DNA from: a bacterium
GTDB taxonomy: Bacteria; Patescibacteriota; Minisyncoccia; Moranbacterales; GWC2-37-73
DNA length: 64,000 nt
NCBI GenBank assembly: GCA_037140955.1
Contig: JBAXDL010000003.1
Span: 27,348-91,347, forward strand
Reading direction: 5' to 3'
The position numbers and the translations under genes are program-made. The notes under the pieces are model-generated. The model worked only from the letters and a program-made list of their open reading frames with translations. It was not told the DNA's origin and searched no databases. Below, piece after piece: positions 5,214 through 54,390 of the stretch. The number at the start of each line of letters is the position of its first letter. Within the stretch, counting starts at the first letter, position 1.

Positions 5214-6356
5214 CTACTTTTCCAATAATGCTTTTTCAATAAACTGACCAAATTCCCTTTGAAATCTTTCTCTTGAAAATTCTTCTCCTCTTTTTCTTAT
5301 CACATCTTTATCATAATTCCCCTCATTATTCAAAAATCTTCTCACGCCATCAGCCAAAACTTCGGGAGTTTGGGCATCAAAAAATTCCCCCGTAACACCC
5401 TCTTGCACGGTTTCCAGTGCGCCACCCTTGCGAAATGCAATCACAGGAACACCACACAGCATTGATTCTATTGGAGTTATTCCAAAATCATCCTCTGCTG
5501 CGAAAATAAAAGCCTTGGCTCCTTTGAAATATTGTTGAGTGACCTTGTCCGACTTCCATCCCAGAATCTTAATGTTGTCCTTGGCAATTTTTCTGAGGTG
5601 TTTTTCTTGTTTACCTGTTCCAATCACAACCAAGGGCAATCCCAATTTATTGAAAGACTCCACCACCAAATCAACTTTTTTGTAAGGAGAAAGACGTGAG
5701 ACAACCAGGAAATAGTCTTTGTCTGTCAATTCTTGGCTTTTGGTTTCTAAATCCACTTCTTGCCTCAGGCTAACTGGTGGATATATTACCGAAGAATCAC
5801 GCCTATAATATTTTGAAATTCTTTTTTGCGTATACGATGAATTTGCAATCAAGTGTTCCGGCCTTTGCGCTGCAAGATTGTCCCAGAGGCGCAAATAGTT
5901 GAAAAAGAAGCGCAAGAAAAAATTAGCTTTTGTTTTTCTATCTTCCTTCAAATATCTCTCATTATAATCCCAAACCCAACGCATTGGCGAATGCAAATAT
6001 GCCACATTCACCGTGTCCAATTTTGTCACAATCCCCTTGCTCCAAGCGCCAGAAGATGAAATGACCAAGTCAAATTCACGCAAATCAAATGTCTCAGGAA
6101 TAACAGGGAAAAAAGGCAACAGCCATTGCTGGTTTTTTCGCAAAATTTTTGGAAACTTCTGCAAATAAGACGCAACAATGTTTCTATCCTTAAAATAGGT
6201 TGATTTTATTTTTTCATCATACAAAATGGTATAAATCGGAGCATCTGGATACATCTTGGCAATTTCCAAAAGAACCCGCTCTGCACCACCAAAAACAGTG
6301 ACAAAATCATGCACAATGGCAACTTTTATTTTTTTTTCAGCAACATCTTCTTTCAT
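5214..6356 (-). CDS. Glycosyltransferase family 4 (GT-B, group 1).
   Basis: GGAERV motif near the N-terminus. The C-terminal half is of the E-x7-E type (GITPIESMLCGVPVIA). The start overlaps the stop of the upstream recombinase by 4 nt. Confidence 0.7.
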   Translation of the reverse strand: MKEDVAEKKIKVAIVHDFVTVFGGAERVLLEIAKMYPDAPIYTILYDEKIKSTYFKDRNIVASYLQKFPKILRKNQQWLLPFFPVIPETFDLREFDLVISSSGAWSKGIVTKLDTVNVAYLHSPMRWVWDYNERYLKEDRKTKANFFLRFFFNYLRLWDNLAAQRPEHLIANSSYTQKRISKYYRRDSSVIYPPVSLRQEVDLETKSQELTDKDYFLVVSRLSPYKKVDLVVESFNKLGLPLVVIGTGKQEKHLRKIAKDNIKILGWKSDKVTQQYFKGAKAFIFAAEDDFGITPIESMLCGVPVIAFRKGGALETVQEGVTGEFFDAQTPEVLADGVRRFLNNEGNYDKDVIRKRGEEFSRERFQREFGQFIEKALLEK

Positions 6357-7165
6357 AAAGGACTTTTTATGTTTCTTAGCATCGGATTCGTCACCTTGGT
6401 ATATATCTGTGTTGTCCTTATATTAGCATGACCAAGAAGTTCCTGTACATATCGAACATCAACACCATTTTCCAACAAATGTGTTGCAAAGGAATGCCTG
6501 AGCGAATGAAATGTGGCATCCTTTTGGATTCCAGCTTTTTGCAAGGCATTTTCAAAAACCTTTTGCGCCGTTCGTTCCGTGAGCTTTCCCTTGCGCTCAC
6601 TAGCAAAAACAAACTCATCAAGATCCTTGCCTGCAATCAGGCTTTGAATTTTTTCAACCAATTTTTCAGGAAGCACTGTGATTCGATCCTTGTTTCCTTT
6701 GGCTCCCTTGAGATGCATTGTCAATTCAGGCAAATCCAAATCCTTGACCTTCAAGTTTATGACCTCACTAACTCTCAGTCCCCCAGCATATGCAAGCGCA
6801 ATCATCAAATTGTGCTTTTGATTGATAATTTCATTCAAAATGACTTGAATTTCATCTCGCGAAAGCACAATTGGAAGCTTGCTGGCAGTTTTGGCAAAAT
6901 GCACATCAATTTTTCCTCTATATTTGAGCACATTCCAGCAGAAAAAATTAATCGCTTGCAGACTTTGATTTGTTGTCTGAGAAGAATATCCTTTGTCCAC
7001 TTTTGATAGGATGAATTTCTTGATAAAATCAACATCAACCTTTTCAAAATTATCCTTTTTTGCTTGCAAATACTCAGCCACACAGAAAGAATAACTCTTG
7101 ATAGTTTTTGGACTGTATTTTCTCAGTCGCAATTCATCTTGAAGTTTTTGCAAATAGACGTCCAT
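6353..7165 (-). CDS. xer: Tyrosine-type site-specific recombinase, XerC/XerD family (short, 270 aa).
   Basis: The C-terminal catalytic region is HSLRHSFATHLLENGVDVRYVQELLGHANIRTTQIYTKV (R..H..R..H...Y). It is translationally coupled (ATGA overlap) to the downstream GT4 gene. Confidence 0.85.
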   Translation of the reverse strand: MDVYLQKLQDELRLRKYSPKTIKSYSFCVAEYLQAKKDNFEKVDVDFIKKFILSKVDKGYSSQTTNQSLQAINFFCWNVLKYRGKIDVHFAKTASKLPIVLSRDEIQVILNEIINQKHNLMIALAYAGGLRVSEVINLKVKDLDLPELTMHLKGAKGNKDRITVLPEKLVEKIQSLIAGKDLDEFVFASERKGKLTERTAQKVFENALQKAGIQKDATFHSLRHSFATHLLENGVDVRYVQELLGHANIRTTQIYTKVTNPMLRNIKSPL

Positions 7166-7235
7166 TGATATTTATGCTAATATTGCCTTGTAAATAAATT
7201 ATACAAAATATTCGCAATAGATGCAAAATTTTGTA

Positions 7236-7262
7236 CAGTATGCGAAAACACTTCGCATACAA
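7236..7262. promoter_or_regulatory. dif-like palindrome: cagtatgcgaa-aacac-ttcgcatacaa (arms of about 11 bp, 5-nt spacer).
   Basis: The 9-bp arms are perfectly inverted (gtatgcgaa / ttcgcatac), extending to 11 with two mismatches. The site lies 70-95 bp upstream of the xer start and has the architecture of Xer recombination sites. Confidence 0.35.
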
Positions 7263-7311
7263 AAGAGTTGATCTGAAATGTCGCTCCACTACGTTTGCTC
7301 CATTTCAAATC

Positions 7312-7340
7312 AACGTGCGCGCCTGCCAGGCGCGCACGTT
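7312..7340. promoter_or_regulatory. 29-bp perfect GC-rich palindrome: aacgtgcgcgcctg-c-caggcgcgcacgtt.
   Basis: 14-bp arms with a 1-nt centre. It is the most GC-rich 30-mer in an AT-rich spacer, lies between the divergent xer and the 7417 gene, and is preceded by an overlapping 14-bp imperfect hairpin (7267-7314). Confidence 0.4.
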
Positions 7341-9037: not shown

Positions 9038-10186
9038 CTATTCCCCCTTCAAGATAACAGAAATTTCCCTCGCACATTGGTCCCAATCAAATCTTTTCAC
9101 ATTTTTAAGACCTTTTTTGATAAGGTCTTTTTTCTTTTCTTTGTTAGAAATTATTTCAAAAATATTCTCAGCAATTTCATTTGGATTACTTGGATCAACC
9201 AAAGCAGCTGAACAGGTATCAAATTGCATCTTTGCTTTTTCAAGACCGGATTCCGGTTCAAGCCCGGAATGACAAGATGTGATCTCGGAAATCGAAGAAT
9301 TGTTTGAAGCAACAACGCAGCATCCAACACTTTGCGCTTCCAAAATTGGAATTCCAAAGCCTTCATATTGTGTTGGAAAAACAAAAACATCTGCATTTTT
9401 CAAAAGTTCCCATTTTTCATCATCACCCACGAATCCAAATTCTTGAATTTCCTCATTCCATTTGGAATTTGATATTTGGAATTTGATATTTACATAATTA
9501 TGTCCTGGTTTTCCAGCAAGTATAAGATGATGCGGAATATTATATTTTTCCTTCAATATGTCAAAAGCTTTGATGATATTTGCAATATTTTTCCTTTCCT
9601 CAATTCTACCTAAAAATAAAAGAAATTTCTGATTTCTAATTTTGGATTTTATTTGATATTTGTCATTTGGATTTTGGATTTTATTGCCGTATCCCTCATA
9701 AATAACCTTTATTTTTTCATTTGCAATTCCATATAGTTCAATCAAATCCTTCTTGGTGTTTTCAGAAACTGAAATTATCACATTTGCCCAAATGCAGGAT
9801 TTTTTGATAGTAAGACGCATATAAAAGCGCTCAAACCAAGAATATGCTCGTGGAAGAAATTCATATTCCAGGCCATGCACTGTCACGATAGTATTTCTTG
9901 GATGAATCATTGGCACAGTATGTGCAGGAACAAACAATTTCTCCACTGGATGCAAAAACATTTCCAATGACAATCCAAATTGTGTCCAAAATATTGGAAA
10001 TCTTATTTCCGTGATTTTCCAATTTTCTGGCAACTTGAAATCTATTTTTTGATTTTTACGAATATACAAAATTACTTGCTCATTCTGCAAGTAATTTGTA
10101 AGATTTTCTATAACCTGATATGAATATTCTTCAATACCAGTTCTTTGTTTCAAAAATGCCCGAGAAGCATCGATGCCTATTTTCAT
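9038..10186 (-). CDS. Glycosyltransferase family 4 (group 1). The C-terminal region contains a GC-rich palindromic-repeat fragment in frame.
   Basis: QYEGFGIPILEAQSVGCCVVAS (E-x7-E region). The peptide SCHSGLEPESG is encoded by the GC-rich 9258..9282 segment shared with the element inside elp3. Confidence 0.7.
   Translation of the reverse strand: MKIGIDASRAFLKQRTGIEEYSYQVIENLTNYLQNEQVILYIRKNQKIDFKLPENWKITEIRFPIFWTQFGLSLEMFLHPVEKLFVPAHTVPMIHPRNTIVTVHGLEYEFLPRAYSWFERFYMRLTIKKSCIWANVIISVSENTKKDLIELYGIANEKIKVIYEGYGNKIQNPNDKYQIKSKIRNQKFLLFLGRIEERKNIANIIKAFDILKEKYNIPHHLILAGKPGHNYVNIKFQISNSKWNEEIQEFGFVGDDEKWELLKNADVFVFPTQYEGFGIPILEAQSVGCCVVASNNSSISEITSCHSGLEPESGLEKAKMQFDTCSAALVDPSNPNEIAENIFEIISNKEKKKDLIKKGLKNVKRFDWDQCAREISVILKGE
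9258..9282 (-). repeat. Partial copy of the GC-rich palindromic element, in frame within the GT4 coding sequence (CHSG-peptide family). It is 20 bp identical to 46908-46927.
   Basis: The minus-strand sequence tgtcattccgggcttgaacc matches tgtcattccgggcttgaccc at 46908 apart from a one-base insertion (19 of 20 identical). It lies in a local GC spike. Confidence 0.55.
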
Positions 10187-10232
10187 TGCTTGTTAGATAT
10201 TAGCGTTTAGCTATTACAAAAAATAACCACTA

Positions 10233-10343
10233 TGCGAGATTATTTTTATTATTTGGCCAATAACCGGCGACAGTGGATTCTTGAGCTTTTGGATATTAAG
10301 CATTTCATCCAAAAGCGTGCCAAAAAATGAAAATAATCTCACA
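10233..10343 (+). repeat. MITE-like intergenic element, copy A (TIR tgcgagattatttt / aaaataatctcaca, central hairpin).
   Basis: 111 bp between mreB (3' end) and GT4 (5' end). Hairpin gcttttggat-N12-atccaaaagc at 10285-10316. Shares the ggccaa..gcgacag..tgagctttt..aaaagcgtgccaaaaa core with five other copies. Confidence 0.8.
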
Positions 10344-10358
10344 TAACTCAATAAAAGC

Positions 10359-11746: not shown

Positions 11747-11766
11747 AAAAATAATATGCAAATTTC

Positions 11767-11870
11767 GTGAATCTATTTCATCTTGAGGCAACAGCGAACG
11801 AGAGTGAGGTCTTAGCTTTTGATTATTAACTCCTTAATCAAAAGCGTGCCGAAAGAGGAAATAGATGAGC
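11767..11870 (+). repeat. MITE-like element, copy B (TIR tgaatctatttc / gaaatagatgag).
   Basis: Between murA (3' end) and the mazG-like gene (5' end). Hairpin gcttttgatta-N9-taatcaaaagc followed by gtgccgaaagaggaaatag. The core is colinear with copies A, C, D, E and F. Confidence 0.7.
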
Positions 11871-11894
11871 AGAAATTTGCTCAATCAAAAAACT

Positions 11895-16295: not shown

Positions 16296-17009
16296 TTATA
16301 TCCATTTTTTTGCTTCCAAGCCAAGTCTTGCCGCTTCACGTTGAGCTTCTTGCTTTGAATTTCCTTCGCCCTCTGCCACCAATTCATCAGCAAGATAAAC
16401 GCCAACCACAAAGTGTTTGTCGTGATCAGGTCCCCATTCCTTCATCACGCGATACGATGGAGTGACTTTGCTATTTTCCTGCGCCTTCTCTTGAAAATAA
16501 CTTTTTGGATCAAGGTATAATTTTTTTTCAATAATCTCGGTCAATCTGGTTGCTACATTTTTCAAGACAAATTTTTTGGTCACCTCATATCCTTGATCAA
16601 GATAAATAGCGCCAATAATGGCTTCCAATGCGTTTGCCAGTAAGTATTGACGAGCTCTCCCTTTGTCTTTTGCTTCTCCGCGACTCATGAGCAAAAATCC
16701 TTCAACTCCAATGCTTTGCGAAACACTAGCAAGCATTTCACCATTAACAAGCGCACTTCTCCAACTAGTAAGTTCGCCTTCTGGATTTTTATAATTAGCG
16801 TACAAATATTCAGTTATAATCAATTCTAAAACAGCATCACCCAAAAATTCCAAACGCTCATTGTGATCAAGCGCATAATCTCTGTTTTCATTTAAGTAAC
16901 TTCGATGCGTCACTGCCTGTCTCAAAATTTCAATATTTCCAAATTCAACTCCAATTTTTTTAGCTAAAGATTCGATCATAGATACAAAAACCCAAAAACC
17001 AAATAACAA
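16296..17009 (-). CDS. rnc: Ribonuclease III.
   Basis: ERLEFLGDAVLE signature, C-terminal dsRBD, 237 aa. Confidence 0.9.
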   Translation of the reverse strand: MLFGFWVFVSMIESLAKKIGVEFGNIEILRQAVTHRSYLNENRDYALDHNERLEFLGDAVLELIITEYLYANYKNPEGELTSWRSALVNGEMLASVSQSIGVEGFLLMSRGEAKDKGRARQYLLANALEAIIGAIYLDQGYEVTKKFVLKNVATRLTEIIEKKLYLDPKSYFQEKAQENSKVTPSYRVMKEWGPDHDKHFVVGVYLADELVAEGEGNSKQEAQREAARLGLEAKKWI

Positions 17010-25554: not shown

Positions 25555-25667
25555 AAAATTCATAACAAATTATTTAGCTTTTTATGTATACTTGTTTTTT
25601 TGCTTGCCTTTCGTTTGCTGTGCTCACATGGAAGCCGCAAAAAACAATATACATGAAAAAATAAAAA

Positions 25668-26855
25668 TTATTCCAAAGAATAAGGAAAAGCATCCAGCAA
25701 TTCCGCTGAATAATAAAATTCATAAGCAAGTGAACCAAAACTATATTTTGACTCTCCAACAGTGATCTGACTTCCTCCAACTTTTGGATTGGCATTTGGC
25801 TGTGATTGAGGAAAACCAACATTAAAAAGTGTGCCCACAATTTCTGGGCGATATTTGATATCATAGCCAGCCTTTTCCCATTGACTCATCATTTGTTTTA
25901 AATATATCGCGCCGTAAAGATAAGAAAAATAGTGCGTGTTTTCAGTCAAACGATCATAACGCTTGTCGGCATCATCCTCATTTTCAAAGTCCAACTTATG
26001 TTCAAATTCGGGACCCAAATAATAAGGTGAATTTTTGTCTTTCAGGTGATTTTCAGTTTCAATGGCTGTATTCTCCTTGATTCCCATGATTCCCAAAGAG
26101 ATTTTGTTAGCATTTCCAAGAATCTTGAGTGGCTCAAAAAATTTCTTAAAAAGTTCCCTATTACTATTAAACAAACGAACTTGCTCTACGATTGCACAAG
26201 AAACCAACAATCGCGGCTCAATGCCAACAACGCCGGCAGCTCTGTCAATCACATCCTTATCTTTAACTATTGCCTCTCTGATTGTTTTCCATTGGTCATT
26301 ATCCATCCATGGAAAAATCGTAGCACTTTGAATTCCCATATATTTCTTGCTGATCAAATCATCATCAGCTTCAACATTTTTGTTATCACAAACAGCAAAG
26401 ACATCACTGCTATATTTTGCCTCAATTCTGAGTCTAGCCGCTAAAATCATTTTGGAAACCAAAACATCTGAATCTGTTTTTTGATAATTTTCTATTATTT
26501 TTACTGCAGCCTCAGGTGCATTTTTGCCAATAATATCTATTTGGCAATAATTTTTTGACTTCACAGCTTTCTTTGCTGCAAGATTATTCATCTGCAAAGA
26601 CAGGTCATCCAGAGAGTTTTTAATTAAAATATCCTTACCATTTTCAGTGCCCGCCCTCACAACACTTGCTTTTACATTTTTTCCCATAACAACCTCTTCA
26701 AATCTTTGACTATTGCTGTCAATCACACCTTTCACATCAGTAAAATGAAAGCGAATAGCAAAAAAACCCACAACCAAAACAAAGCCAATCAAAGCAAAAA
26801 CATGCAGACAATATATATAGCTATTATAAAAAAATGTTTTAATACTATTTTTCAT
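25668..26855 (-). CDS. Hypothetical membrane-anchored protein (N-terminal TM, large extracytoplasmic domain).
   Basis: TM at residues about 10-35. No confident family assignment. Confidence 0.35.
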   Translation of the reverse strand: MKNSIKTFFYNSYIYCLHVFALIGFVLVVGFFAIRFHFTDVKGVIDSNSQRFEEVVMGKNVKASVVRAGTENGKDILIKNSLDDLSLQMNNLAAKKAVKSKNYCQIDIIGKNAPEAAVKIIENYQKTDSDVLVSKMILAARLRIEAKYSSDVFAVCDNKNVEADDDLISKKYMGIQSATIFPWMDNDQWKTIREAIVKDKDVIDRAAGVVGIEPRLLVSCAIVEQVRLFNSNRELFKKFFEPLKILGNANKISLGIMGIKENTAIETENHLKDKNSPYYLGPEFEHKLDFENEDDADKRYDRLTENTHYFSYLYGAIYLKQMMSQWEKAGYDIKYRPEIVGTLFNVGFPQSQPNANPKVGGSQITVGESKYSFGSLAYEFYYSAELLDAFPYSLE

Positions 26856-34835: not shown

Positions 34836-34865
34836 GTTTTAGTATTTACGTTTTTATTTAAGCAA

Positions 34866-34972
34866 TGTGAGACAATTTTTCTTTTCGGCCAACAGAAACG
34901 AGAGTTTCTCTTGAGCTTTTAGATATTGAGTATTTTATCTAAAAGCGTGCCAAGAAGGAAAATAGTCAAGCA
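34866..34972 (+). repeat. MITE-like element, copy C (TIR tgtgagacaattttt / aaaatagtcaagca).
   Basis: Between mazG and the tmk-like gene. Hairpin gcttttagat-N12-atctaaaagc shows compensatory changes relative to other copies. Confidence 0.8.
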
Positions 34973-34990
34973 ATTGTGCAAACATCTTGC

Positions 34991-36092: not shown

Positions 36093-36120
36093 TTTTATTA
36101 TGTTTTTTATAGCATAGTTT

Positions 36121-36226
36121 TGCGAGACAAATTTTATTTTTGGCACGCTTTTGAATGAATACTCACTATTCAAAAGCTCAAGAGCTACTGTCGCCAGCTG
36201 TTGGCCAAAAACAAAATTAGTCTCGC
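36121..36226 (-). repeat. MITE-like element, copy D, in inverted orientation (TIR tgcgagacaaat / attagtctcgcga).
   Basis: The reverse complement matches the core of copies A, C and E (ggccaacagctggcgacag...gagcttttgaatagtgagtattcattcaaaagcgtgccaaaaa). It lies between folA and thyA. Confidence 0.8.
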
Positions 36227-36271
36227 GACTGCATAAATTCAAGATGACATTATTTCATCCATTAAAAACAC

Positions 36272-40039: not shown

Positions 40040-40117
40040 AGTTTTGTGTGGTCAACGAATCACGTAATATATTACTCAATTCTCCCACTATTATAATTTT
40101 ATAAACCACAGAAGCAA

Positions 40118-40224
40118 TGTGAAACTATTTTTCTTTTTTGGCCAATAGAAGCGACAGCTTCTCCTGAGCTTTTGAATAATGAGTATTTCATTCAAAAGCG
40201 TGCCAAAAAGGAAAATAGTGGAAC
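40118..40224 (+). repeat. MITE-like element, copy E (TIR tgtgaaactattttt / aaaatagtggaaca). Serves as the reference copy.
   Basis: Inserted in the rplK-rplA intergenic spacer. Core ttttggccaatagaagcgacagcttctcctgagcttttgaataatgagtatttcattcaaaagcgtgccaaaaaggaaaatagtggaacaattgc. Confidence 0.85.
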
Positions 40225-40249
40225 AATTGCAATCATCTTAAAGAATGTT

Positions 40250-41653: not shown

Positions 41654-41663
41654 ATTAAATAGG

Positions 41664-41737
41664 TGGGCTTATCAAGATTCGAACTTGAGACCTCGTCATT
41701 ATCAGTGACGCGCTCTAACCAGCTGAGCTATAAGCCC
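41664..41737 (-). tRNA. tRNA-Ile (anticodon GAT).
   Basis: The reverse complement gggcttatagctcagctggttagagcgcgtcactgataatgacgaggtctcaagttcgaatcttgataagccca folds as a canonical cloverleaf. Anticodon loop ctGATaa. 74 nt, CCA not encoded. Confidence 0.9.
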
Positions 41738-41784
41738 ATAAAATTTGCAAAAACTGCGTGATAAGCGCAGTAAATTCTATGTTG

Positions 41785-41857
41785 TGGACCGGACAGGACT
41801 TGAACCCGCTACCTCCTCAGTGCAAATGAGGCGCTCTACCAGGTGAGCTACCGGCCC
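41785..41857 (-). tRNA. tRNA-Ala (anticodon TGC) with a G3:U70 identity pair.
   Basis: The reverse complement gggccggtagctcacctggtagagcgcctcatttgcactgaggaggtagcgggttcaagtcctgtccggtcca. Anticodon loop ttTGCac. Acceptor gggccgg/ccggtcc with G3-U70. Confidence 0.9.
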
Positions 41858-45572: not shown

Positions 45573-47258
45573 ATGGAAAAATACTATGACAATTATATCA
45601 AATCAGCCATCAAACAGCTTCCCGACTTTCTGGATGATTTTTCAAAACTCAAAAAAAAGCTGTCCAAGCAATACAGTATTCCACTTCCAACTAACGCAAA
45701 CTTGCGTGACAGATACAATCAACTTGTAGAAAAAAGAATCATCAAAAAGAATGAAGCTTTTGAAGACATTCTTTGCACGCGTGGAATTCGCACGCAATCA
45801 GGAGTCGCAGTGGTGGCCGTCCTCACCAAGCCCTATCCATGTCCTGGAAAATGCATCTATTGCCCAACAGAAAAAGACATGCCCAAGAGTTATCTCTCAA
45901 ATGAACCGGCAGTGATGCGCGCTATTGACTCTCAATTTGACCCCTATCGTCAAATGCAAAATCGCTTGCGCTCACTGGAGCTAAATGGGCACCGAACAGA
46001 CAAGATTGAGCTTATTGTGATGGGTGGAACTTTTTCATTCTTACCCAAAGCATATCAAAAAAAATTCATAATCAGATGCTTTGCTGGGGCCAATGAATTT
46101 AAAAACAAAAGACAAAATTCAAAAGACAAAATTCAAAAGAGCCCACAAGAGCAATTGCAATTTGAGCAAAAAAGAAATGAAACCGCAAAGCAAAGAATCA
46201 TCGGGCTCACACTTGAAACAAGACCGGACTATATTAACGAAAAAGAAATTTTAAACTTCAGAGAACTTGGCTGCACGCGAGTTGAACTTGGGGTGCAGAG
46301 TATTTATGATGATGTGCTCGAATTCAACAAGCGTGGCCATCTTGTGAGCGAAACAATCAGAGCCACTAAGCTGCTCAAGGATGCAGGCTTTAAGATAAAC
46401 TATCATATGATGCCAGGTCTTCCAGGCTCGAGCATTGTTCGTGATTTTGAAATGTTCAAGTCTCTTTTTGATGGACCAAATTTTCAACCAGACATGCTCA
46501 AGATATATCCAACAGTTGTGCTCAAAGATAGTGAGTTGTATGATATTTGGAAAAAGAAAAAATACATACCGCTTTCAAATGAAGCTTTTGAAAAATTGGT
46601 AGTAAGGATAAAGAATGAAGCTATTGTGCCATATGTTCGCATTGCAAGACTCATTCGCGATGTGCCGACACCATCAATCATGGCTGGACCAATGGTTTCA
46701 AACTTGAGACAAATCATCATTCCGAAGTCAAATTGTCCCTGCATTCGTTGTCGCGAAGTTGGTGCAACCTACAAAATAAAAGAAAAAATTGTTCTGGATA
46801 GAATTGACTACAAAGCTTCAGATGGTCAAGAAATTTTCTTGCAATATGTTTCGCCTGACAAAAAAAAATTATTCGCCCTTTTGCGCCTTCGAATTCCAAA
46901 CTCCTCGTGTCATTCCGGGCTTGACCCAAAATCCAGCAAGTCTCACCAAAAAACAAACGACCTGGATTCACGCCTCCGCGGAAATGACAAGCTTTATGAT
47001 CTTTTGCCAATCCTGCAAAGTGCCGCCCTTATCAGAGAGGTTCATACCTATGGAAAATTAACCAAGATAGACACGCAAGACAAAACATCTCCGCAACATA
47101 TTGGACTTGGAAAAAAACTTCTTCTTGAAGCTGAAAAAATTGCCAAAGAAGAATTTGGTATGTCAAAAATAACAGTAATTTCTGGTGTTGGTGTGCGTGG
47201 ATATTATAGAAAAAATGGATACAGGCTTAAAAATACCTATCTAACAAAAAAGATATAA
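45573..47258 (+). CDS. elp3: Elp3-family radical SAM / GNAT protein (tRNA U34 carboxymethyluridine synthase homolog). Carries an in-frame palindromic-element insertion.
   Basis: VAVVAVLTKPYPCPGKCIYCP radical-SAM cluster region characteristic of Elp3, and a C-terminal GNAT (HIGLGKKLLLEAEKIAK). 561 aa. Confidence 0.75.
   Translation: MEKYYDNYIKSAIKQLPDFLDDFSKLKKKLSKQYSIPLPTNANLRDRYNQLVEKRIIKKNEAFEDILCTRGIRTQSGVAVVAVLTKPYPCPGKCIYCPTEKDMPKSYLSNEPAVMRAIDSQFDPYRQMQNRLRSLELNGHRTDKIELIVMGGTFSFLPKAYQKKFIIRCFAGANEFKNKRQNSKDKIQKSPQEQLQFEQKRNETAKQRIIGLTLETRPDYINEKEILNFRELGCTRVELGVQSIYDDVLEFNKRGHLVSETIRATKLLKDAGFKINYHMMPGLPGSSIVRDFEMFKSLFDGPNFQPDMLKIYPTVVLKDSELYDIWKKKKYIPLSNEAFEKLVVRIKNEAIVPYVRIARLIRDVPTPSIMAGPMVSNLRQIIIPKSNCPCIRCREVGATYKIKEKIVLDRIDYKASDGQEIFLQYVSPDKKKLFALLRLRIPNSSCHSGLDPKSSKSHQKTNDLDSRLRGNDKLYDLLPILQSAALIREVHTYGKLTKIDTQDKTSPQHIGLGKKLLLEAEKIAKEEFGMSKITVISGVGVRGYYRKNGYRLKNTYLTKKI
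46908..46989 (+). repeat. GC-rich palindromic element of about 82 bp inserted in frame in elp3 (encodes SCHSGLDPKSSKSHQKTNDLDSRLRGNDK). Terminal inverted repeat gtcattccggg / cccgcggaaatgac.
   Basis: Local GC spike with inverted termini. In other frames it reads VIPGLTQNPA / HASAEMTS, typical of a widespread palindromic-repeat peptide family. A 20-bp partial copy (one-base insertion difference) lies at 9258-9282. Confidence 0.6.
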
Positions 47259-51526: not shown

Positions 51527-51546
51527 TTATTAAAATATAATATTAG

Positions 51547-51730
51547 TGAGAATAATTTTTTATTTTTGGCGCAATAGCGTCGTGCTTAGCACTCTTTCAA
51601 ACCCCTCGGTTCGAATAATTCCGCCACGGGAAAACCTAGTTTTTCCCGACCCATTTCCTGACAGTTTCTATTGAGCTTTTGGATATTGTGTATTTATCCA
51701 AAAGCATGCCAAAAAGAAAGATGGTAGAAC
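51547..51730 (+). repeat. MITE-like element, copy F, carrying a nested insertion of about 78 bp (51592-51669) that contains gggaaaacctagtttttccc and ggttcgaat motifs.
   Basis: Left end gtgagaataattttttatttttggcgcaatagcgtcg. Right part tgacagtttctattgagcttttggatattgtgtatttatccaaaagcatgccaaaaagaaagatggtagaaca. Hairpin gcttttggat/atccaaaagc. Lies between yvcK and leuS. Confidence 0.7.
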
Positions 51731-51749
51731 AATTTAACTCAAGAAATAT

Positions 51750-54155: not shown

Positions 54156-54390
54156 ATAGCTACAAGATTACAAATTTATATAAACACACAATAATTTATG
54201 TGAGAATATGTTTTTATTTTTTCACTAGAAATAAGTCACTTTGGTGTTATGTCAAAAGTTGCAATTATTTCTCCGTGACAAAAATAAAAACATATTCTCA
54301 CAACTATGCCATACCAACAAATCCATAAAAAATAAAAACAACCATCTTTAATTGTTTTTATGATATCAGAATTTTTATATAAAATCAATA

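Follow-up and report, generated by a model that had tools for sequence, protein, structure and literature searches.

Within a 64,000-nucleotide stretch of a Moranbacterales genome (contig JBAXDL010000003.1, positions 27,348 to 91,347; hereafter the window), a first-pass annotation had flagged a hairpin with a 10-bp stem at 10285-10316, which recurs six times with compensatory changes in the stem. This raises the question of whether the hairpin is a unit in its own right, and whether its pairing is under selection or has simply been inherited from different master copies. We found that the flagged sequence (GCTTTTGGAT-ATTAAGCATTTC-ATCCAAAAGC, stem-loop-stem) is not free-standing, but is helix P3 of a three-helix, ~135-nt mobile intergenic repeat. 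This repeat is probably a non-autonomous mobile element of the MITE kind (miniature inverted-repeat transposable element), with a fold under selection, and specific to Candidatus Moranbacteria and their close relatives in the Candidate Phyla Radiation (CPR).

The flagged hairpin as helix P3 of a larger fold

The six-fold recurrence of the stem in the window was confirmed. The pattern GCTTTTNNAT-N(8-16)-ATNNAAAAGC matches at five positions (10285, 34915, 36147, 40168 and 51675), compared to 0.00 matches expected from dinucleotide-preserving shuffles, and a sixth copy of the P3 stem lies at 11815-11845 (GCTTTTGATT/AATCAAAAGC). The variants are those listed in the annotation, GGAT/ATCC (10285, 51675), AGAT/ATCT (34915) and GAAT/ATTC (36147, 40168), together with GATT/AATC (11815), and as all of them are complementary, with full complementarity in six of the six stems, the observation stands. 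The loop, on the other hand, had been described as varying freely, which is wrong; the loops of the window copies and of about 60 others keep to the consensus A-T/A-T-G-A-G-T-A-T-T-Y.

RNAalifold on 47 copies folds the repeat as a three-way junction of helices P1, P2 and P3, in agreement with the minimum free energy (MFE) folds of single sequences, and the z-scores of the MFE folds range from -5.7 to -7.8. P1 is the long outer stem of ~28 bp, in which the two terminal inverted repeats are paired. P2, made of CAA/UUG and a 5-6-bp stem, is a short hairpin with the loop GCGACAG or GCGAGAG, which reads CGANAG in nearly all copies, giving a C-GANA-G cap, and P3 is a 10-11-bp hairpin. P2 and P3 together lie in a conserved core closed by GGC/GCC. 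In what we call the + form, the orientation whose strand carries GCGACAG, the element runs from a T-rich left arm ending in TTTGGC through CAAYWG, the GCGACAG/GCGAGAG-loop hairpin, CTYTTGA, the P3 hairpin, GT and GCCAAA to an A/G-rich right arm complementary to the left arm. The element is ~135-145 nt long, individual copies measuring 127-135 nt and, with inserts, up to ~190-200 nt. Fixed places in P1, and for one subfamily the base of P3 as well, have recurring tandem G.A/A.G pairs, and a T.T mismatch in P1 is conserved across subfamilies.

The primary sequence is also conserved outside the P3 loop, in GCTTTT/AAAAGC and at the junction bases TGAGC and GCGTGCC. The proposal that selection acts on structure rather than on primary sequence is therefore right in its first half, since compensatory changes maintain the pairing, and too exclusive in its second, since the loop and these other bases are constrained as well.

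A covariance model built on the three-way-junction structure was used to search the window and found six copies (A to F). The flagged hairpin belongs to copy A (10222-10356, + strand; 99.8 bits, E=7.6e-28; MFE three-way junction with z=-7.35), which lies between the stop codon of mreB and the start of a GT4 glycosyltransferase gene, both genes being on the minus strand. On the + strand of this copy, the 5' arm of P1, which is the left terminal inverted repeat GCGAGATTATTTTTATTATTTGGC (10234-10257), pairs with the 3' arm, the right terminal inverted repeat GCCAAAAAATGAAAATAATCTCAC (10319-10342), in both the MFE fold and the consensus. The P2 region occupies 10258-10283, with CAA (10258-10260) paired to TTG (10281-10283) and the loop GCGACAG at 10267-10273 (RNAalifold and MFE), and P3 occupies 10285-10316, its stem being formed by 10285-10294 and 10307-10316 around a loop at 10295-10306.

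Covariation, strand asymmetry and conservation in place

The compensatory change seen among the six window copies carries less weight than the annotation had given it: pairing is kept, but the six copies are not independent, several of them sharing a variant through one subfamily, and part of the covariation among them reflects different master copies and not independent events. We therefore turn to a covariation set of 85 covariance-model hits, corresponding to 69 distinct sequences and 46 pairs. Standard pairs are present in 93.2% of the cells, compared to 81.5% in shuffled controls and 36-57% when the partners are slid by 1-3 columns, and the covariation score is 0.313, compared to 0.117 for shuffled and at most 0.086 for slid partners. 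Both-sided changes occur at 32 of the 46 pairs, and compensatory substitutions are found in all three helices.

For P3 itself, mismatches are not as frequent as compensations in this larger alignment. Among the 69 distinct copies, 98.8% of the P3 cells are paired and both-sided changes are seen at six of the ten P3 pairs, while single-sided changes are confined to a few copies (three U.G types, in L092/L094, L178 and L220, and two A.C, in L064 and L003; L-numbers denote loci from related genomes). There are at least 12 distinct P3 stem sequences, one of which is common to most copies, and the divergent ones are still paired (GC-GA-TTGGCC/GGCCAA-GA-GC, GC-GA-GCAATC/GATTGC-GAA-GC, GC-GA-GCTGTC/GACAGC-GA-GC and GT-GA-GTAGCC/GGCTAC-GA-AT). 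In the distal half of P1, more than 10 subfamilies differ in sequence and complementarity is kept. The inferred selection on pairing stands up in this far larger, partly orthologous set of data.

Each distinct copy and its reverse complement were also folded without alignment. The + form is the more stable in 62 of 65 copies, with a mean difference of -6.5 kcal/mol (Wilcoxon p 7e-12), and in 31 of the 32 copies outside the main subfamily. The advantage is present in 19 of 20 copies whose + form lies on the locally G-rich strand and in 43 of 45 on the C-rich strand; because the bias is the same on both, it belongs to the element itself rather than arising from local mutation pressure. The alignment contains 124 G.U cells and 40 A.C cells, and the asymmetry persists with DNA energy parameters (56 versus 8). 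As one strand folds better whatever its genomic orientation, selection sees a single strand, either RNA or single-stranded DNA (ssDNA), two forms that the folding tests do not separate. A purely double-stranded DNA function would not be expected to give such an asymmetry, and the double-stranded cruciform that the annotation had offered as one form of the structure fails to explain it.

The same asymmetry bears on the idea that the complementarity is a by-product of template switching ("quasipalindrome correction") or of gene conversion, with no selection on structure. Long imperfect palindromes are known substrates of template-switch mutations, the element is such a palindrome, and its many near-identical copies are compatible with homogenisation. 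However, no strand asymmetry would be expected from this process, whereas 62 of 65 copies have one; correction would erase mismatches, yet the tandem G.A/A.G pairs and the T.T mismatch in P1 are conserved across subfamilies, and the conserved unpaired loops and junction bases are left unexplained. We consider this explanation very improbable.

Copies that have stayed in place between species give a further view of the selection on pairing. Younger orthologous copies are 89-98% identical (91-98% in five of six main-subfamily pairs), compared to 76-91%, and up to 95% in one pair, for their flanks, which are mostly coding in this comparison. In a second subfamily, orthologous pairs are 78-85% identical, compared to 72-83% for the flanks. 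Copy B (11753-11886, + strand; 69.7 bits; P3 GCTTTTGATT/AATCAAAAGC at 11815-11845) lies directly downstream of murA in the PRA-PH/murA spacer. Orthologues of this copy follow the murA stop codon in the same orientation in four related genomes (L226:8771-8900, L228:8661-8779, L229:9326-9454 and L234:5337-5464). The five murA genes have an overall identity of 74-79%, which falls to 48-58% at third codon positions, and synonymous sites of these species are near saturation. The element downstream of murA is 64-82% identical among them and keeps its architecture. The 5' strand of the six distal P3 pairs is TTGATT, TTGATT, GCAATT, GCTGTC and ACAGTC at the five sites, and 29 of the 30 cells form Watson-Crick pairs, the remaining one being G.U. 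In more distant Moranbacteria, the spacer between murA and the next gene measures 5-78 nt, which indicates that copy B is an old insertion that has been retained. The murA-site copies provide the best evidence for selection on P3 pairing, rather than inheritance from different masters.

Mobility, distribution and relation to known repeats

The repeat shows the marks of transposition. In the main subfamily, conservation reaches CAGAAGTTACGC... at the left and ...GCGTAAGTCCT at the right, and the terminal inverted repeats are AGAAGTTACGC... (left) and, given as the reverse complement, AGGACTTACGC... (right); complementary arms of ~28 bp are present in all subfamilies. The hexamers immediately before the left terminus (CAGAAG...) and after the right one (...GTCCT) match each other far more often than permuted flank pairs do (z ~8), which corresponds to 6-bp AT-rich target-site duplications such as AAAATT, AAATAT, AATAAT and AATTTA. 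Filled and empty orthologous sites, compared using an aligner with free end gaps, agree with this: the empty site of L175 reads GAAAAT-AATTTA-ATTAAAAAATCG and the filled site of L092 reads AATTTA-[element]-AATTTA, while TTAAA is present once in L014 and on both sides of the element at L078:4816-4948 (TTAAA-[element]-TTAAA, 5-6 bp). L175 carries a member of a different subfamily at another position in the same spacer, so that the insertions are independent. There are more such filled/empty pairs, as well as decayed remnants, including partial deletions with one arm left. The element is short, below the limit of about 500 bp for MITEs, and non-coding, all copies are intergenic with none inside an open reading frame (ORF), and they are dispersed, with six in the 64-kb window and dozens of loci per genome in several metagenome-assembled genomes (MAGs). 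The terminal inverted repeats, the duplication of fixed length and variable sequence, the small size and the insertion polymorphism together place the repeat within the definition of a MITE. The element inserts into short AT-rich intergenic spacers, duplicating 6 bp of the target, and its movement would depend on a trans-acting transposase making 6-bp staggered cuts.

Several points weigh against a MITE with a selected fold. The ~1 Mb of loci searched contained neither a transposase nor an autonomous parent sharing the termini; it yielded short solo remnants and no unmatched full arms, and no transposase was present among the 31 window proteins scanned. Conservation in a classical MITE should be highest at the termini, while here the core is conserved and more than 10 subfamilies have different distal arms. 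The alignment behind the covariation counts was fitted to the structure model, and its copies share descent. By crude ORF calls, 25 copies between co-directional genes have the + form antisense and 13 have it sense; the orientation relative to the local GC skew is 42 versus 19. As the better-folding strand is more often antisense, a simple role within mRNA is not obviously served.

The orientation bias relative to GC skew also enters into a different explanation, in which the selected form is folded ssDNA, as a substrate of a mobilising enzyme or of a host DNA process, comparable to integron attC sites or to the ends of IS200/IS605 elements. Besides this bias (42 versus 19), the asymmetry found with DNA energy parameters speaks in its favour; GCGANAGC-type loops are very stable as DNA mini-hairpins too, and a tyrosine recombinase gene is present in the window (6353-7165). 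However, duplications of 6 bp and variable sequence point to staggered double-strand cuts rather than to the chemistry of HUH enzymes or tyrosine recombinases, the window proteins scanned include no HUH or RAYT product, and there is no attC R-box order, integrase-linked array or cassette-like gene content, the neighbours being housekeeping genes. Hence, folded ssDNA seems to us an improbable basis for the selection.

With an exact-pattern scan of one genome per species, the family was found only in MAGs of Candidatus Moranbacteria/Moraniibacteriota, the "Parcubacteria group" and the "Patescibacteria group"; other matches were due to chance and lacked the flanking features. The MreB protein of the window is 98% identical to proteins named Candidatus Moranbacteria. 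A metagenome scan with a P3-free pattern gave mostly GC-rich chance matches and at least about 30 real copies. In viral contigs, there were three chance matches to the pattern, none of them recognised by the covariance model, and an association with phages was rejected on this ground. Over the window, only two tRNAs passed the gathering threshold of Rfam 15, with no family for the element, and permissive Rfam scans of the regions of copies C, D and F and of the inserted module gave chance-level hairpin matches only. Full-text searches aimed at CPR/Moranbacteria repeats gave no description of the repeat, and a 2024 census of prokaryotic MITEs does not mention Patescibacteria. The repeat is a previously undescribed family of structured MITEs in Moranbacteria. 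It is unusual in its conserved core with variable termini, in its strand-specific fold with the better strand preferentially antisense, and in the missing transposase among the loci searched.

Among described repeats, the closest analogue is bcr1 of the Bacillus cereus group, by analogy and not by membership. In the passages of Delihas (2011, PMC3184786) that cite Okstad (2004) and Klevan (2007), bcr1 is a ~155-bp non-coding intergenic repeat with a distribution that is not conserved between close strains, its copies are flanked by AT-rich 5-bp direct repeats, and its predicted RNA fold has a closing stem and two independent stem-loops with compensatory changes. The Moranbacteria element, compared with bcr1 by description and not by sequence, resembles it in size class, in dispersed intergenic location, in short AT-rich flanking repeats, and in a closing stem and two stem-loops with compensatory changes. 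It differs in its host (CPR/Patescibacteria rather than Bacillota), in its 6-bp duplication of variable sequence and in its many subfamilies of distal arms; moreover, bcr1 is transcribed, whereas the Moranbacteria element is known here from DNA sequence alone.

In the corresponding passages on ERIC (PMC3184786), this repeat is a ~127-bp imperfect palindrome of transcribed intergenic regions, inserted in either orientation and flanked by TA, with longer variants arising through insertions at fixed internal sites and with effects of co-transcription on mRNA stability. The Moranbacteria element shares the intergenic palindrome, the two orientations and the internal insertions at fixed sites. It has a three-way junction with a conserved core and 6-bp duplications in place of the simple long hairpin and TA flanks of ERIC, and the host clade and sequence are different. 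The Correia elements of Neisseria (CREE/NEMIS) are MITEs 104-157 bp long that combine terminal inverted repeats with a conserved core and insert next to genes; in transcripts, RNase III binds or cuts their hairpin, and their ends can create promoters (PMC2649163). MITE size, terminal inverted repeats, a conserved core and insertion beside genes are common to both families. Correia elements have a TA duplication and 26-bp conserved inverted repeats. Neither these nor the Correia IHF site is seen in the Moranbacteria element, and promoter creation is only weakly suggested, by the -35-like hexamer TTGAGA of the right arm. Membership in the ERIC or Correia families was ruled out, as the duplications are 6 bp and variable (not TA) and the host clade is different.

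REP/REPIN-RAYT and IS200/IS605-derived repeats are likewise intergenic palindromes, in which a single-stranded hairpin of one strand is recognised. They are short (hairpins of 20-40 nt), often GC-rich, linked to a Y1 HUH transposase and without target duplication, unlike the Moranbacteria element, whose terminal inverted repeats and 6-bp duplications rule out such a derivation; no Y1 transposase was present among the window proteins scanned. Identity with integron attC sites was also rejected, as the termini GTTACGC...GCGTAAG, found in one subfamily only, are in the opposite order to R''(RYYYAAC)...R'(GTTRRRY) and the neighbours are housekeeping genes (mreB, murA, thyA, folA, rplK, rplA and leuS). 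Known ribozyme cores (the hammerhead and others), compared by eye because CUYUUGA is near to CUGAUGA, were rejected too, as the essential bases and the GAAA strand are absent and there is no Rfam match.

Genomic context and candidate function

The window copies adjoin housekeeping genes, some of which are normally co-transcribed, in the GT4/mreB, PRA-PH/murA, mazG/tmk, folA/thyA, rplA/rplK and cofD/leuS spacers. Besides copies A and B, copy C (34854-34986, + strand; 91.6 bits; P3 34915-34946, AGAT/ATCT) lies between tmk and a mazG-like gene, copy D, which is inverted (36107-36238, - strand; 110.1 bits; P3 36147-36177, GAAT/ATTC), between thyA and folA, and copy E (40106-40239, + strand; 99.2 bits; P3 40168-40199, GAAT/ATTC) between rplK and rplA. 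Copy F, in the leuS/cofD spacer (51546-51742, + strand; 45.1 bits at 51632-51742; P3 51675-51705, GGAT/ATCC), has a left arm GTGAGAATAATTTTTTATTTTTGGC at 51546-51570 (+ strand) that precedes a ~90-nt insertion (about 51571-51660) at the usual place of P2, for which there is no Rfam match. Additional hairpin modules are inserted at fixed internal points of other copies too: L014, L064, L092 and L094 have a 20-nt hairpin GCCTGCCTGCCGGTAGGCAGG ahead of P2, and L049:701-889 and L003:5720-5906 have a ~60-nt three-stem module within the P3 loop. No Rfam match was found for the extra structured modules examined in permissive scans.

The spacer of copy A is occupied differently in related genomes. Between mreB and the GT4 gene, L229, L231 and L233 have an empty spacer of 2-74 nt, L227 and L228 a different hairpin element, of the type of window 54200-54301, and L226 a third type. 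Judging from these comparisons, such spacers are repeatedly colonised. The element at 54200-54301 is a second hairpin element with perfect 26-bp arms GTGAGAATATGTTTTTATTTTT... (z=-8.5); the arms resemble those of one subfamily of the main family, and the core is different. A long AT-rich hairpin at 25556-25670, in a convergent-gene spacer, with the arms ATGTATACTTGTTTTTT / AAAAAACAATATACAT, is a weak match to the covariance model (17.9 bits). Short palindromes of the TGTCATTCCGGGCTTGAACCGGAATCC type at 9245-9280 and 46880-46940 are apparently inside long ORFs (the GT4 gene and a radical SAM gene), and a similar motif occupies the murA spacer of L227.

The position of stable stem-loops in intergenic spacers near stop codons could suggest that the hairpins are intrinsic transcription terminators. 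However, there is no terminator-like site (a stem followed by a T-run) on either strand around the two copies inspected, the stems are AT-rich, copies lie inside operons such as rplK-rplA and thyA-folA, and copies between divergent genes (11) are commoner than between convergent genes (3), so that we hold a terminator role to be all but inconceivable. No promoter-like sites were found above chance, the hexamer in the right arm being the only hint.

The folded single strand under selection would most likely be RNA transcribed from the spacer, with a folded ssDNA form as the alternative. The window itself encodes an RNase III (16296-17009), and the ~28-bp duplex of P1, in a transcript of either strand, would be a natural substrate for this enzyme. 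By analogy with the Correia and ERIC elements, the repeat would then act as a module for mRNA processing or stability.

A stronger form of this idea is that the repeat serves the host primarily as a structured RNA, whether as a module for cis-regulation or processing or as a family of small RNA genes, with the core as the functional unit and the MITE-like spread only as the means of distribution. The core is more conserved than the termini across subfamilies, the fold is strand-specific, the P2 loop is GNRA-like (C-GANA-G) and tandem G.A/A.G pairs recur in P1 and P3. Furthermore, the element has been retained in place over near-saturated synonymous divergence, and structured modules are inserted into its loops, as in the variable regions of RNAs. 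On the other side, the copies occur in both orientations relative to neighbouring genes, with the better-folding strand more often antisense, an internal promoter or terminator was not detected, and there is no Rfam relative. The many young near-identical copies, which are absent from sister genomes, fit selfish spread. On balance, such a host-functional RNA appears unlikely to us. We give slightly more credit, still as a tentative idea that is probably not correct, to the three-way-junction core being a dedicated strand-specific RNA or ssDNA module on which CPR bacteria depend, with the MITE arms only as its vehicle. If this were true, it would explain why the core outlasts the termini and is more conserved than they are, why a single strand folds better and why it has a GNRA-like loop and tandem G.A pairs, as well as why an old copy is kept in place. 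The module could then serve throughout the genome as a signal for RNase III processing or for stability, uncoupling genes within compressed operons, or it could be an element that spreads by way of its RNA.

Whatever its function, a selected MITE of this kind matters for these genomes. Those of the CPR/Patescibacteria measure ~1 Mb and leave little room between genes (2-25 nt in related lineages), so that ~135 nt added to many operon spacers (six in 64 kb) is a notable load. Almost no non-coding elements have been described in this clade, and the core, whose fold has persisted in place across deep divergence, is for that reason a candidate for a new structured RNA or DNA module. In the annotation of these MAGs, the repeat accounts for many "long" intergenic regions and for spurious small ORFs, and it provides a ready marker of recent genome dynamics in uncultured Moranbacteria as well as a natural experiment on the effect of inserted hairpins on operon expression.

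Some features near the copies are of separate interest. The tyrosine recombinase encoded on the minus strand at 6353-7165 has 270 aa, with Phage_integrase and SAM-like N-terminal domains. Its gene is next to one GT4 gene (5214-6356), with further ORFs between it and the second (9038-10186). The syntenic L226-L229 have small or no ORFs between the two GT4 genes, so that the recombinase gene may be an insertion. On the minus strand at 41662-41857, tRNA-Ile(GAT) and tRNA-Ala(TGC) are adjacent, in the style of an rRNA-operon spacer, and no rRNA was detected anywhere in the window. In L227, a bAvd-like gene (2561-2920) and a reverse-transcriptase gene (RVT_1, 6705-7319) lie a few kb apart and flank murD, a pair that hints at a diversity-generating retroelement. 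Finally, repeated TAGCTTTTTAG / TTAGC motifs are present upstream of the GT4 gene in several genomes (L229:11009-11082 and window 10187-10230), and this region may be a conserved regulatory or promoter region that receives insertions of the element.

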